DNA from: Candidatus Woesearchaeota archaeon
Lineage (GTDB): Archaea; Nanobdellota; Nanobdellia; Pacearchaeales; GW2011-AR1
Length of the DNA stretch: 32,000 nt
Reading direction: 5' to 3'
Assembly (NCBI GenBank): GCA_964601675.1
Contig: CAZROF010000002.1
Coordinates: 17,153 to 49,152 of the forward strand
Positions 10,382 through 32,000 of the stretch are shown piece after piece (the stretch's first letter is position 1; each line of letters opens with the position of its first letter). Position numbers and translations under genes: made by a program. The notes below the pieces were generated by a model. The model had not been told where the DNA came from. It saw nothing but the letters and a program-made list of their open reading frames with translations, and did not search any database.

Positions 10382-11629
10382 GTGAAAGTTTTAATGCTTG
10401 GCTGGGAATTTCCTCCTTTTTTCGCTGGGGGGGCTGGAATAGTTTGTTATGAACTGACGAAAGAGATGGTGAAGATGGATGATATTAACCTAACTTATGT
10501 TATGCCATTTGGCCCTGATGAAGTTAAAAATCATCATCTTAGAGTTTTAATTGCGGATAGATTTAAAGGAAAGAAGATAAATTTTAAGCGGGTGCCGTCT
10601 TTACTTGGAGCCTACATAACTCACGAAAGTTATAAGACAGAGGTACAAAGACTGCTTTCGTCTGGTGATTTGAAGATGCGACAGGACAATACTATAAATT
10701 TATATGGGGTTAATCTTATTTCGGAGGTTTATAATTTTGCGGAGAGAGTTAGTACAATTGTAGAAGATGAAGACTTTGATATCGTGCATGCTCATGACTG
10801 GACAACATTTCCGGCTGCTATTAGAGCGAGTGAAAAAATGAAAAAACCCTTGGTTGTTCATATGCATATTACTGAGTTTGATAAGTCAGGTGGTGCAGGG
10901 GCTGATCCTAATATTTATTCTATTGAAAAAGATGGAATGGATAAGGCTGATAAAGTTATTACAATTAGTGAGAGGGTAAAGCAGAGGCTTATTGAGAGTT
11001 ATCATATTGACCCTGCAAAAATTGAAATTGTTTATCATGCGAAGATTGATGTTGGTTCCGATAAAGATTTTGACTTTCCAAAATTTAAAGAAAAAAATAA
11101 AGTAATTTTGTTCGCAGGCAGGATGACTTTACAAAAAGGGGCAGATTATTTTATTGAAGCTGCGGCTAAGGTAGCGAATTTTTATGATAATGTTATTTTT
11201 ATTATGATTGGTAGCGGAGATCAGATGAATCAAATGATTAGAAAAGTTGCTGAGATGGGATTACAAGACAAAATATTATTTCATGGATTTTACACGCGAG
11301 ATGAGGCTAATAAATTTTTTAGTATGGCTGATGTTTATGTTATGCCGTCGGTAAGTGAGCCTTTTGGGCTTATTCCTCTTGAAGCTATGAGCAAAGGGAC
11401 TCCGACAATTATTTCAAAACAAACTGGGGCGGGAGAGATTTTAAACAATGTTTTTAAGGTTGATTTTTGGGATACAGATAGAATGGCTAATCAAATTGTT
11501 TCATTATTAAATTATAATGAACTGCATAACACTATGAAGAAGGAGGGATTAAGTGAAGTAAATAAATTAACGTGGGATAAACCTGCACGAAGATGTGTTG
11601 ATATTTACAAGGAACTCACTGAAAAATAA
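10382..11629 (+). CDS. GT-B glycosyltransferase, glycogen-synthase-like (GT4/GT5 type)
   Basis: N-terminal MLGWEFPPFFAGGAG and C-terminal SVSEPFGLIPLEAM (the E-x7-E motif of retaining GT-B enzymes). It is followed 2 nt later by GH57. Start is uncertain: GTG 10382, ATG 10394, or the ORF-track TTG 10358. Confidence 0.8.
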   Translation: MKVLMLGWEFPPFFAGGAGIVCYELTKEMVKMDDINLTYVMPFGPDEVKNHHLRVLIADRFKGKKINFKRVPSLLGAYITHESYKTEVQRLLSSGDLKMRQDNTINLYGVNLISEVYNFAERVSTIVEDEDFDIVHAHDWTTFPAAIRASEKMKKPLVVHMHITEFDKSGGAGADPNIYSIEKDGMDKADKVITISERVKQRLIESYHIDPAKIEIVYHAKIDVGSDKDFDFPKFKEKNKVILFAGRMTLQKGADYFIEAAAKVANFYDNVIFIMIGSGDQMNQMIRKVAEMGLQDKILFHGFYTRDEANKFFSMADVYVMPSVSEPFGLIPLEAMSKGTPTIISKQTGAGEILNNVFKVDFWDTDRMANQIVSLLNYNELHNTMKKEGLSEVNKLTWDKPARRCVDIYKELTEK

Positions 11630-11631
11630 TA

Positions 11632-12885
11632 ATGGTTTCAATGTGTTTTTACTTTCAGGTTCATCAGCCTTATAGAATTCGGAGATATTCTATTTTTGAT
11701 ATTGGGCACGAGAAAGAATACTTCGCAGACTCCTCTGGTACAAAATTAGATAATAAATGGATTGTTGATAAAGTTTCTGCTAAATGTTATTTACCCAGTA
11801 ATGCGGTCTTACTGGAATTGCTAAATAAACATCCTGAATTTAAAGTTAGTTTTTCTTTTAGTGGTGTTTTCCTAGAACAGTTGGAAGAATTCGCGCCTGA
11901 GGTTTTAAAAAGTTTTCAGGATTTGGTTGCCACCGGTCGGGTTGAGATTTTAAGTGAAACCTATTATCATTCCCTATCATTTTTGTTTGATAAAGATGAA
12001 TTCCGTGAACAGGTAAGATTACATGATAAATTAATTGAGCAATTATTTGGAATTAGTCCTAGAGTATTTCGAAATACGGAGTTAATTTATAATAATGAAT
12101 TGGCAAATGAGATCGAGGCTATGGGATACAAGGGAATTATTGCCGAAGGTGCCGACCACTTGTTGAAATGGAGATCTCCAAATTTTTTGTATCGTCCCAG
12201 GGGGAGTGAAAAGATTAAGGTCCTATTGAAAAATTACAAGTTAAGCGACGATATTGCTTTTAGGTTTTCTAATCGGGACTGGAAAGAGTGGCCACTGACC
12301 GCTCCAAAATATGTTCAGTGGCTAAATGCAATTAATGGTAATGGTGAAATTGTAAATTTGTTTATGGATTATGAGACTTTTGGTGAACATCAGTGGGAAG
12401 ATACTGGAATTTTTGAGTTCCTTCGTCATTTGCCTGAAGAATTTTTGAAACATCCTGACAATAATTTTAAGACTCCTTCTGAGGTTGTAGATTCTTATGA
12501 GGCTAGAGGTGAGTATGATTGCCATAATTTTATTTCGTGGGCTGATATGGAGCGGGATTTGAGTGCATGGAGGGGAAATGAGATTCAAGACGCTGCTATG
12601 AATCGTATTTATGCTTTGAGTGAGAAAGTGAAATTAACTGGAAATGGAAATTTAATTCACAAATGGAGAAAACTACAAACGTCAGACCATTTTTACTATA
12701 TGTGTACTAAATATTTTAACGACGGAGATGTCCATAAATATTTCAATCCGTATGACAGTCCTTATGATGCGTTTATTGCTTATATGAATGTATTACAGGA
12801 TTTAGAAATGGAGATTAATGATATTTTGAAAGAGCGAGGATTTTTGAAGAATGGTAAGATTATTACAAATGAAATAAATTTATAA
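11632..12885 (+). CDS. Glycoside hydrolase family 57 (alpha-amylase / glucan-processing enzyme)
   Basis: N-terminal FYFQVHQPYR and the FMDYETFGEHQWE block are typical of GH57 catalytic domains. 417 aa, in glycogen context. Confidence 0.85.
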   Translation: MVSMCFYFQVHQPYRIRRYSIFDIGHEKEYFADSSGTKLDNKWIVDKVSAKCYLPSNAVLLELLNKHPEFKVSFSFSGVFLEQLEEFAPEVLKSFQDLVATGRVEILSETYYHSLSFLFDKDEFREQVRLHDKLIEQLFGISPRVFRNTELIYNNELANEIEAMGYKGIIAEGADHLLKWRSPNFLYRPRGSEKIKVLLKNYKLSDDIAFRFSNRDWKEWPLTAPKYVQWLNAINGNGEIVNLFMDYETFGEHQWEDTGIFEFLRHLPEEFLKHPDNNFKTPSEVVDSYEARGEYDCHNFISWADMERDLSAWRGNEIQDAAMNRIYALSEKVKLTGNGNLIHKWRKLQTSDHFYYMCTKYFNDGDVHKYFNPYDSPYDAFIAYMNVLQDLEMEINDILKERGFLKNGKIITNEINL

Positions 12886-30189: not shown

Positions 30190-30471
30190 TCTCTCACCTA
30201 TTGTTTTATTGGAGGTTGTCGGTTATAAGGTTTTTGGGACTTAGTTGTACAAGAATGATTAAAGAAAGCTTTGGAGGTATGATAAGTAAAGTATTGGAAA
30301 CTAAACTGCAACGAGGTTTTCGTTAAATTCTTGTTCTATTTCCTGACGAATAAGGTGAGGAGAGTTTTGGATTTGCCGATTTTTTAGAACCAATGTAGTT
30401 TTTTGAAAATTAGTTTTTATCTTGATAAAAATTATGTTGATTTGATGATTGATATTTTAAAAGATTTGGGT

Positions 30472-30860
30472 CGAATGTAATGAGCGATGTTATCTGAAGT
30501 TTTAATTTTAGATTGAAGTGTTATGTCAAGTTGGCTCGTTGAGAAAAATTGGGGACGTTCTAACGTGAAACGCTTGGAGGCAAATCTAAAATTAAACTGA
30601 ACATTGGGATTAAGAAAAGTTCGACGAAATCTAATTTGGTAAAATTCAGCCGGAATTTTCCTCATAATCCTTGTTATGCGTCCCGAACGGAACGTAGTGT
30701 AGTGAGAGTGCAACGTGGTCGACCGAAGGGAGAAGTTCGGGGCTCGCCGAAAATTCGTTGTTATCATAGTTGTTGAAAAATAAGTTATTAACTTTCAAGT
30801 GGTAAAAGAAACGAAAGATTTATAAAGTATTAATAGATTCTAATTCTAAGGAGAATTAAA
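30472..30860 (+). repeat. Noncoding unit A: locally GC-enriched, structured segment plus conserved promoter block
   Basis: Alignable in four blocks with 31183-31622: a hairpin block, GGAGG..TGAACAT..ATTAA, GAGTGCAACG, and a 75-nt promoter block about four-fifths identical by eye. Possibly a plus-strand ncRNA. Confidence 0.55.
30819..30826 (+). promoter_or_regulatory. BRE/TATA candidate (cgaaaga-tttataaa) for 30861-31154
   Basis: tttataaa is preceded by a purine-rich cgaaag and lies 42 nt upstream of the ATG, with AGGAG 8-12 nt before the ATG. The geometry is nearly identical at 31580-31587. Confidence 0.5.
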
Positions 30861-31154
30861 ATGTCATTAAGAAAAACATTAACAAGCATTATATTGGCTT
30901 CAGCAAGTATAGTTGGACTGTCAGGATGTGGAAGAGGGGAATTACCACAAATAAAAGAAACAAGATATTTTAATGGCTCTGTTTTGCAAACATATCAAGA
31001 TAAAAACGGAAATTATAAGATTGACAACATAAAAGTAGACTTTATTGGTTCATTCCCTGTGGGTTCGATGTCATATAACAGAAGTCCAACAGAAAGAGAG
31101 CTAAAAGACTCTAAAAAAATATTGGCTTCAGAAAATATTTTTTTAGAGCAATAA
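30861..31154 (+). CDS. Small putative lipoprotein / secreted protein (97 aa)
   Basis: Signal peptide MSLRKTLTSIILASASIVGLSGC with a lipobox-like LSGC. An AGGAG ribosome-binding site lies upstream. No family recognised. Confidence 0.65.
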   Translation: MSLRKTLTSIILASASIVGLSGCGRGELPQIKETRYFNGSVLQTYQDKNGNYKIDNIKVDFIGSFPVGSMSYNRSPTERELKDSKKILASENIFLEQ

Positions 31155-31182
31155 ATTTTTCGCTAAATATTTCTTTCAACAA

Positions 31183-31622
31183 TTTCGTTTAATCAGCGAT
31201 GTTATGCGACAATTTTAATTTCGCATTGGAGCGTTAAACGAAGACATCAAAATTAGAATTTTTGGTTTACCGACGCCGAGGAGGAGATTGGAAATTGAAA
31301 TGAACATCCGCATTAAACGACCCGTAGGGCTCGAGCGGAACAAAGTGACCTCGAGTGTTTTTTGCAAAGCCAAAAATTTGGGTGAACGAGTGCAACGGAG
31401 CGAACCGTTTAATGCATGTTAAGGAATCCGAGCCAAAGGCGAGGACAAGGAATAGTCTGCAAGACGGTTTTTCACGAAGTGAAAAAATTCCGAAGAGTAT
31501 TCCCACTTTCAAAAATTCTTTGATATTGTAGTCGCTGAAAAATAGTTATTCATTTTAAAGTGGTAAACGAACCGAAATGTTTATAAAATATTAATTTATT
31601 CTATTGGCAGGAGAAAAACAAA
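31183..31622 (+). repeat. Noncoding unit B: diverged paralog of unit A
   Basis: Same four conserved blocks in the same order as 30472-30860. It occupies the whole 468-bp spacer between two unrelated small genes. Confidence 0.55.
31580..31587 (+). promoter_or_regulatory. BRE/TATA candidate (cgaaatg-tttataaa) for 31623-32000
   Basis: tttataaa lies 43 nt upstream of the ATG, with a CAGGAG ribosome-binding site. Paralogous to 30819-30826. Confidence 0.5.
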
Positions 31623-32000
31623 ATGTTAAGATATATTGCAAATAGGGTTGTAGGAAGAAGAAAATCAACAGATGAATCTTTGAGCGTAAGCGAAGCAACT
31701 GAATTGCTTGGTAGTCTGAATGGCTTGACAAAAGGAAATATTAACTATAATACAGGATCTACACAATTTGCACTTAGCGATGTTGCTCTAAGAGAAATGG
31801 TTGACTTTGTCGAAGATAAATTCTGCACGAGAGGAAATTATTACACAGATATCGAACATGAAATTTATCATGGGGGATATGGAGACAAACATTATCTTGA
31901 ATTATCTCAGGGGAAAATTAGCGGAACATTCGGAACAAAAGAAGTTAAAGGACGTCCGTTCAGAGAAGCAACAATCGATTTTCTTGTTCAAGAAGAATAA
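31623..32000 (+). CDS. Hypothetical protein (125 aa)
   Basis: Complete ORF ending with TAA at 31998-32000. Soluble composition and a ribosome-binding site upstream. No motif recognised. Confidence 0.6.
   Translation: MLRYIANRVVGRRKSTDESLSVSEATELLGSLNGLTKGNINYNTGSTQFALSDVALREMVDFVEDKFCTRGNYYTDIEHEIYHGGYGDKHYLELSQGKISGTFGTKEVKGRPFREATIDFLVQEE

Follow-up and report, generated by a model that had tools for sequence, protein, structure and literature searches.

Integrons combine the recombinase IntI with attI and folded attC sites, and both archaeal integrons and clusters of attC sites lacking an integrase (CALINs) have been described (Ghaly et al. 2022, PMC9668308); their outward signature is a row of small, mostly orphan genes with a recurring imperfect palindrome between them. 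In CTX phage, two inverted dif-like sites, attP1 with a 12-nt centre and attP2 with a 7-nt one, lie ~90 nt apart, and the attP single strand folds into a substrate for XerCD (PMC3089051). Archaeal XerA has been reported to bind stem-loop structures besides dif (PMC8371274). On Acinetobacter plasmids, pdif modules are small gene modules bounded by 28-bp Xer-type sites of alternating orientation, so that inverted repeats flank each of them, and they are shuffled among replicons. Here we analysed a locus comparable to these systems at the right-hand end of a 32,000-nt stretch of DNA (the window) from Candidatus Woesearchaeota archaeon (assembly GCA_964601675.1, here G000; contig CAZROF010000002.1, here C2; the window is C2:17153-49152). 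An initial annotation had described two tandem noncoding units there, each ending in a promoter for an unrelated small gene, and had suggested either a cis- or trans-acting RNA family or a recombination or landing-pad element that captures genes. The units are most likely the conserved DNA junction scaffold of a gene-cassette array, not a structured RNA. The array lies between a hydrogenase operon and what synteny predicts to be a gene for an accessory XerA-like tyrosine recombinase; that this accessory Xer serves the scaffold at the DNA level is the account we favour, with moderate confidence.

Unit A spans 30440-30860 and unit B 31155-31622 (coordinates are window positions), and every motif that the initial annotation quoted from them is present in place. 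The two units align in ordered blocks: a two-helix hairpin (block 1), a second palindromic region (blocks 2 and 3) and a segment running into the promoter (block 4). BLASTN against the genome recovered both block 4 (30750-30855 against 31512-31615; 80% over 106 nt, E = 2e-18) and block 1 (79% over ~46 nt, E ~2e-3). The array had been suspected to continue beyond 32000, and a further unit, C, is seen directly on C2: it follows the 125-aa gene at once (window-equivalent 31996-32182), aligns with unit B at 81% identity across 187 nt (E = 1.5e-45) and reaches the contig end, 418 nt beyond the window. The low-GC assembly (0.94 Mb, 58 contigs, 83% complete) has BRE/TATA promoters (B recognition element plus TATA box) and XerA-type genes, which fit a DPANN archaeon. 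It carries ~10 loci with scaffold pieces, mostly at contig ends in variable DNA, and units A-C are mosaics whose separate pieces match different loci. An exact-protein look-up with both cassette proteins returned only a 3.8-kb contig of the same arrangement that breaks at the same place as C2.

The block-1 hairpin is built from a recombinase-site layout. In unit B (31183-31243, + strand; its exact 62-mer recurs in 28 metagenome loci) it consists of an outer helix TTCGTTTAA/TTAAACGAA, an internal loop of 11 nt on one side and 7 nt on the other, and an inner helix ATGCGA/TCGCAT. A dif-format core (core 1, 31185-31212, +) makes up its 5' half and reads TCGTTTAATCA GCGATG TTATGCGACAA, in the 11-6-11 format (compared with the table in PMC3089051); dif sites, too, have TTAT at the right arm's inner edge, but ATAA where the left arm here ends in ATCA. 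The 3' half is an inverted copy of the core in which the paired arms stand 7 nt apart, not 11. A further inverted core (31296-31320, - strand; reverse complement TCGTTTAATGCGGATGTTCATTTCA) lies ~90 nt from the block-1 core and holds the AACAT boundary at 31303-31307. Cores 1, 2 and 3 within a unit are oriented +, -, +, and the gene module has core 3 (+) on one side and the following core 1 (+) on the other. The unit A hairpin (30474-30527, +) is degenerate yet recognizable (covariance-model match of 67 bits), and its 5' half likewise holds a dif-format core, AATGTAATGA GCGATG TTATCTGAAGTT.

Pairing in this hairpin is maintained by compensatory change, as the initial annotation had proposed from two copies. 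Across ten homologues, 87% of the cells of the two helices were paired and 7 of 13 pairs had changed on both sides, a score that none of 500 shuffles reached. Mismatches in these homologues were G-T nine times and A-C eight times, that is, about equally often; no strand is therefore favoured, and the argument that G-T pairs are tolerated only if the plus strand is read as RNA does not hold. Predicted stability was uneven. The unit B sequence (31180-31245) folded to a free energy of -12.5 kcal/mol, with z scores of -3.4 as + strand DNA, -2.7 as - strand DNA and -2.7 as RNA, but unit A folded no better than its shuffles (z ~0), so that of the two hairpins originally described only that of unit B is thermodynamically significant. 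In unit C the inner helix is broken because a B-type left arm is joined, across a 22-nt insert, to an A-type right arm. The internal-loop sequence is invariant across many lineages. A covariance model found three copies in G000, all in this array. Of 48 further genomes of the genus, 12 had a match: 11 a single one and G066 two, at contig starts.

A close structural parallel is CTX phage attP(+), one case among the mobile elements that exploit Xer (IMEX). In both cases inverted dif-like sites anneal within a single strand around an unequal unpaired centre (11 against 7 nt here), and the predicted fold of unit B is a duplex site of this kind; the further inverted core ~90 nt away reproduces the attP1-attP2 spacing. 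The resemblance has limits. No phage genes are present, the xer gene beside the site belongs to a separate accessory clade, where elements of the CTX type rely on the host's housekeeping Xer and the chromosomal dif site, the host is an archaeon with a single-protein Xer, and the arms only loosely resemble bacterial dif. Compared with pdif modules, only short noncoding modules lie clearly between cores of opposite orientation (+, -, +), the repeat around the gene module is another one, 12 bp long and specific to each copy, and the array is chromosomal and archaeal.

The hairpin is part of a sharply bounded element. In unit B a 135-nt core (31174-31308, +) comprising the b arm (see below), the block-1 hairpin, the d arm, a GGAGG linker and AACAT is 94-96% identical in two genomes of the genus (G035 and G025) and in one of another family (G056), genomes in which FEN-1 coding DNA is only 65-72% identical. 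The 18-mer TTTAATCAGCGATGTTAT from core 1 occurs in at least 120 metagenome contigs. Among 79 metagenome loci that we fetched, 68 had the hairpin and 28 the exact 62-mer of unit B; homology began at 31174 in 59 of the 68 and ended at AACAT(C), 31307/8, in 34, and with other genomes too the homology of the core stopped at AACAT. These sharp edges indicate a discrete element under extreme constraint or of recent spread.

Between the hairpins, each cargo gene sits inside a bracket of inverted repeats. The 5' arm, b', is the first 12 nt of block 4, directly after ...GTAG, and the 3' arm, b, is the 12 nt directly before the next hairpin. For cassette 1, b' is TTGTTGAAAAAT (30770-30781, +), which pairs with 31170-31182; for cassette 2, b' is TCGCTGAAAAAT (31532-31543, +), which pairs with ATTTTTCAGCAA just past the window end. 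In six distinct cassettes 93% of b'/b cells were paired and 6 of 12 pairs were compensatory, again a score reached by none of 500 shuffles, with variants that included GAAAAT/ATTTTC, TCGACG/CGTCGA and GAAGAAC/GTTCTTC. Outside the bracket lies a second pair of arms. The d' arm of cassette 1 (30747-30769, +), homologous to the conserved ...AAAATTCTTTGATATCGTAG of relatives, is the 5' strand of a basal stem whose 3' strand is the d arm at 31243-31265 (+); the next d' arm, CAAAAATTCTTTGATATTGTAG (31510-31531, +), pairs with the d arm of unit C, and a 30-mer there is ~93% conserved in four relatives (G031, G003, G035 and G029). As d' pairs with d, the d' arm, the cargo arm, the block-1 hairpin and the d arm form a three-way junction. 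Such a junction was predicted for a compact 185-nt copy in G032 (-28.6 kcal/mol; z = -4.4 for the + strand and -3.7 for the - strand) and for the 634-nt stretch of G000 cassette 2 (z = -3.1). For the cassette-3 box GGGGTGTCGCCGTC, the G000 assembly contains no partner.

Each cassette in the window carries its own promoter inside the bracket. Cassette 1 has a BRE/TATA at 30812-30853 (TATA 30819-30826, matched to the genome consensus) with a ribosome-binding site, GGAG, at 30850-30853, and cassette 2 has the same arrangement at 31572-31613 (TATA 31580-31587, GGAG 31610-31613), all on the + strand. After the stop codon of each cassette comes a weaker, inverted copy of the BRE/TATA: in the 3' frame of cassette 1 (31152-31182, +) an inverted BRE/TATA-like box, TAAATTTTTCGCT, with the stop codon in it, precedes the b arm TTTCTTTCAACAA, and the two are complementary to 30812-30824 and 30770-30781. 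The block 4 similarity noted initially is real; its cgaaa..tttataaa part, however, is the generic G000 promoter (GAAA-N1-3-TTTATAAA, 31 copies), and only the ~45 nt upstream are specific to the units. A 'split hairpin' rule, in which the right arm of the block-1 inner helix would pair with the left arm of the next junction, fitted cassette 2 and not cassette 1; for that misfit it was dropped in favour of the b'/b bracket, which fits.

The genes within the bracket are unrelated to one another. Cassette gene 1 (30861-31154, +) encodes a 97-aa lipoprotein-like orphan and cassette gene 2 (31623-32000, +) a 125-aa orphan; the two proteins are mutually unrelated, as had been noted, neither had a Pfam family above cut-off, and the 97-aa protein is unrelated to the other cargo genes as well. 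Homologues of the 125-aa protein are patchy (8 of 301 genomes of the order, G000 included) and, at 31-35% identity, too distant for boundary mapping. The b'-b span holds 47 nt and no gene in G032, where the whole cargo-free bracket is 67 nt. It measures ~0.4-0.6 kb in G000, G009 and G031; in G035, G036 and G025 there are two or three genes in a span of 1.1-1.4 kb. Cargo proteins in these slots are mutually unrelated, and several are encoded on the opposite strand (the - strand in G035, G036 and G025). Two metagenome loci, L187 and L198, share 84% identity over the stretch that begins at the b arm, crosses the hairpin and enters topA, and they have unrelated genes to the left of b. Unrelated cargo in one slot, one empty slot, sharp core edges and an xer gene directly downstream in many relatives support the landing-pad or recombination alternative raised by the initial annotation. 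Separately, the 3' end of the 97-aa gene contains a perfect 15+15-nt palindrome (31109-31148; CTCTAAAAAAATATT ... AATATTTTTTTAGAG).

The recombinase often found beside these modules belongs to an accessory clade. G000 has one full Xer gene, at C26:13174-13974, at a contig end. A tree of 49 Xer proteins of the genus split into 31 one-per-genome (housekeeping) proteins and 18 accessory proteins, each clade with 100/100 support, and the G000 protein is accessory, not the housekeeping XerA; a housekeeping-clade XerA, which nearly every relative has, is missing from the 83%-complete assembly. The archaeal XerA model NF040815 was the best match, at 243.5 bits for the G000 protein (cut-off 220) and 216-218.5 bits, just under the cut-off, for the other three Xer proteins tested. 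The integron integrase model TIGR02249 gave 182-205 bits against a cut-off of 265, with the match split into two stretches and the integron-specific insert lacking. AACAY followed by a genome-specific imperfect palindrome lies upstream of the accessory xer TATA box in 13 of the 17 cases with readable upstream DNA, and in the other four (G035a, G022a, G030b and G032a) AACAY is present and the palindrome could not be traced. In G025, G035, G032 and G066 the distance from a block-1 core to the accessory xer downstream of it is 110-250 nt, and in metagenomes the hairpin was upstream of xer in 10 of 42 loci with enough downstream sequence. In four other metagenome loci (L187, L198, L209 and L235) the conserved core leads straight into the start codon of a gene, so that the site also edges a non-xer housekeeping gene; its N-terminus resembles a topoisomerase Toprim domain, and we presume on that resemblance that it is one. 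The end of contig C3 carries cassette-like modules and, next to them, a 3' remnant of an accessory-type xer (...TTQIYTHIANKDIKNL...; C3:42547-42621, - strand).

Synteny places the array and this gene together. In G024, 55 nt separate a hydrogenase gene from a ROK-kinase gene, and in G000 the ROK orthologue (75% identity) overlaps the xer stop codon on C26. It follows that the array would fill that gap, and most likely the array at the end of C2 and the xer gene at the end of C26 face each other across an assembly gap. A recombinase downstream of 32000, one of the possibilities that the initial annotation had raised, is thus predicted by synteny. In G014, four other genes stand between the hydrogenase and ROK genes (L100; G014:C2 reverse complement, 100-1190), and that gap has a different short repeat, tccacgaatt..cacgaatttt, and no scaffold modules. 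On the left, the hydrogenase operon promoter region (30190-30245; ggttataaggtttttggg) is conserved with G014 up to the point where homology ends and the variable region has its left edge.

Blocks 2 and 3 form a second palindromic element whose arms change from copy to copy. In unit B it spans 31303-31421 (+; AACATCCGCATTAAAC ... GTTTAATGCATGTTA; fold z = -2.3), with a structured 88-nt interior that contains CTCGAG/CTCGAG and GAGTGCAACG. The general form, AACAT-arm ... arm'-TGTTA, was present in 31 copies in which the arms vary and stay complementary: the cognate-arm score was 5.87 against 2.88 for non-cognate arms, and none of 5,000 permutations reached it. In unit A, complementary arms run from AACAT, AACATTGGGATTAAG ... 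CATAATCCTTGTTAT (block 2, 30600-30677, +; also included in the cognate-arm test), followed by a GC-rich local stem GTCCCGAA/TTCGGGGC around GAGTGCAACG (block 3, 30681-30744, +); near-copies of the unit A element are on C4, C7, C18 and at C2:14500. The local stem CTCGAG/CTCGAG, which the initial annotation had singled out, covaries too (CACGAG/CTCGTG on C40; CCCGAG as partner of CTCGGG in G032). Further along unit B are two GNA-triloop mini-hairpins, GTCT-GCA-AGAC and TTTTTCAC-GAA-GTGAAAAA (31455-31486, +); across the array such mini-hairpins number ten on the + strand and three on the - strand.

Taken together, the architecture suggests how the array may operate. One period of the scaffold consists of the d'/d basal stem, the 12-bp b'/b arm around the cargo (here a promoter and one small gene), the block-1 hairpin arm, a linker to AACAT and the second palindrome with its copy-variable arms. 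The recombinase, for which the accessory Xer is our candidate, would act on the dif-format cores, either in duplex form or on a single strand that has folded, much as Xer acts on CTX phage attP(+) or IntI on attC; a single-stranded intermediate may be used. Cargo modules could thereby be inserted, excised and exchanged, each bringing or receiving its own promoter.

Read in this way, the array would work like an integron built from different parts. In both, small and mostly orphan genes stand in a row with an imperfect palindrome that recurs, one end has a tyrosine recombinase gene (here by synteny), stems stay paired while their sequence changes, and the unpaired centre is asymmetric; in unit B the boxes GTTTAAT and GTTAAAC even fit the attC consensus RYYYAAC / GTTRRRY except for the last base of the left box. 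The parts differ nevertheless. The recombinase is plain XerA-like without the IntI insert; the spacers are 11 and 7 nt, where attC has 5 and 6; the box in unit A is GTTATGT and those of relatives are GTCAAAC or GCTAAAC, which depart from the R' consensus GTTRRRY; the junction is ~470 nt of several palindromes, where attC measures 60-140 nt; the cargo lies within a hairpin arm, between inverted repeats; and the genes, unlike promoterless one-way cassettes, come each with a BRE/TATA and a ribosome-binding site and, in relatives, can face either way.

Several observations weigh against a cassette system served by Xer, and some of them would suit dispersed mosaic palindromic repeats instead, such as repetitive extragenic palindromes or their bacterial interspersed mosaic elements (REP/BIME), BOX elements or miniature inverted-repeat transposable elements (MITEs), accumulating in variable, gene-poor DNA and spreading by themselves or through some transposase, with Xer a mere frequent neighbour and the cargo variation a property of a recombination-prone region. 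Single AACAT...TGTTA elements with 11-16-nt terminal inverted repeats stand in core intergenic regions, as dispersed repeats would (on C7 beside a ribosomal protein operon, on C15 and C18 and at C2:14500). Most genomes and contigs carry a single block-1 hairpin and no array; about three-quarters of evaluable metagenome loci have no xer directly following, and in five a housekeeping gene follows (topA in four, galE in one). In 36 genomes of the genus, modules and accessory xer occurred together in 11, xer only in 5, modules only in 8 and neither in 12, a co-occurrence too weak and too confounded by assembly gaps for us to use. The link between C2 and C26 is one of synteny alone. Inverted, not direct, repeats flank the cargo, which is not what a plain integrase reaction between duplex sites leaves behind; a bracket-less joint of d' directly to the hairpin was absent from the 49 genomes searched, and an empty and a filled version of one slot were not seen within one strain. 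The repeats share with REP/BIME, BOX and MITE families a modular, palindromic make-up, a G+C content above that of their surroundings, an intergenic position and some single copies; the mosaic build of the units, the likeness of the cargo bracket to terminal inverted repeats, with its cargo-free version in G032, and the many hairpin loci without a nearby xer point the same way. Even so, we consider this explanation unlikely: the copies are few and clustered in one kind of variable locus, at ~10 loci rather than the hundreds of dispersed copies accompanied by a REP-associated tyrosine transposase (RAYT) typical of REP elements, the 83%-complete assembly lacks any match to the Y1/RAYT-type transposase family PF01797, the bracket ends show no target-site duplication, genes lie inside the palindrome, and the core has the layout of a tyrosine-recombinase site and precedes accessory xer far above chance.

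A new structured RNA family, whether of leaders, 3' elements or trans-acting RNAs with a neighbouring recombinase, appears still less probable. It could draw on the covarying helices, the invariant internal loop, the strand bias of the GNA mini-hairpins and a weak TATA-like AAATATTT before the unit B hairpin. C-GNA-G triloops, however, are classic DNA mini-hairpins, and the balance of G-T and A-C mismatches, with both strands folding about equally, shows no preference for a transcript strand. Rfam 15 had no match at gathering threshold over the window and, at E <= 1 over the array, only a chance miRNA match (E = 0.36); a tRNA scan found none. The hairpins of units A and C are unstable, and as much as 1.4 kb of cargo separates the two strands of the b'/b helix, the first of which precedes the cargo's own promoter. 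The orientation of the modules is constant relative to xer, not to flanking genes: the module is 3' of + strand genes here, whereas in G035 and G036 it adjoins - strand genes at their 5' end, and so it has no set relation to a transcript. The RNA alternative of the initial annotation is accordingly not supported. The T shape invites another comparison, since the terminal repeats of parvoviruses have the same topology, a stem closing two small palindromes (A-B-B'-C-C'-A'); the likeness is one of geometry only, with no relation in sequence, genes or life-style. That the palindromes serve an integrated single-stranded-DNA element as its origin of replication, priming or packaging, akin to those terminal repeats or to the single-strand origins of rolling-circle plasmids, would suit the perfect predicted three-way junction, with GTAG as its only unpaired junction bases, and the enrichment of GNA mini-hairpins. 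We regard it as very improbable, given that no Rep/HUH or capsid gene was noticed beside any copy (the only search made being that for the Y1 transposase), a viral contig collection had no match to the 22-mer used as query, and the recurring neighbour is a tyrosine recombinase. Least credible of all, with hardly any weight, is an origin of the units by decay of protein-coding genes. Both strands do have open frames, of 44-111 codons, and a motif, ATGAACAT, follows a GGAGG, but conservation tracks base pairing and not codons, and the candidate small open reading frame at ATGAACAT was rejected: its 'start' is ATG, CTG, TTA or ATA depending on the copy, and the frames stop at once in relatives.

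A cassette scaffold served by an accessory Xer would bear on how DPANN archaea, whose genomes are tiny and which depend on hosts, gain and exchange genes, a process that is poorly understood; site-specific capture would offer a concrete mechanism for their variable gene content. We found no published description of such a system beyond the integrase-less attC clusters of Nanoarchaeota (PMC9668308), which this scaffold could explain. More speculatively, and as a possibility to which we give rather less credence than to the scaffold and its enzyme, the array may exemplify a DPANN gene-capture platform, with a T-shaped foldable dif-core scaffold, a cargo arm that accepts either orientation and its own accessory XerA-like clade, independent of integrons or ancestral to them in design. 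A spare Xer with a foldable dif-like site would be a natural comparison for the evolution of integrons from Xer-type enzymes. In practical terms, the 62-nt core, identical in dozens of metagenome contigs, could serve as a probe or PCR anchor for cargo genes, and the recombinase and its 28-bp site are small enough for direct biochemistry.

Two minor observations concern the variable DNA that holds scaffold pieces. The ends of contigs C2, C40 and C4 have nothing in common beyond a frame, TTTTTTGC(C)TTCTTTTTTTCTAAAAAAGAAG, found at the C2 end (window-equivalent 32386-32418), at C40:32-58 and at C4:7951-7979 and C4:13050-13078. It is an A/T hairpin that precedes cassettes with opposite-strand genes, it looks like a two-way terminator, and the assembly breaks there. 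A variable region of C4 that also holds scaffold modules contains duplicated open reading frames (C4:9269-9832 and 11569-12132; MPKTEHRHMVFSVPEVLWW...), which we take to be IS91-like transposase genes.

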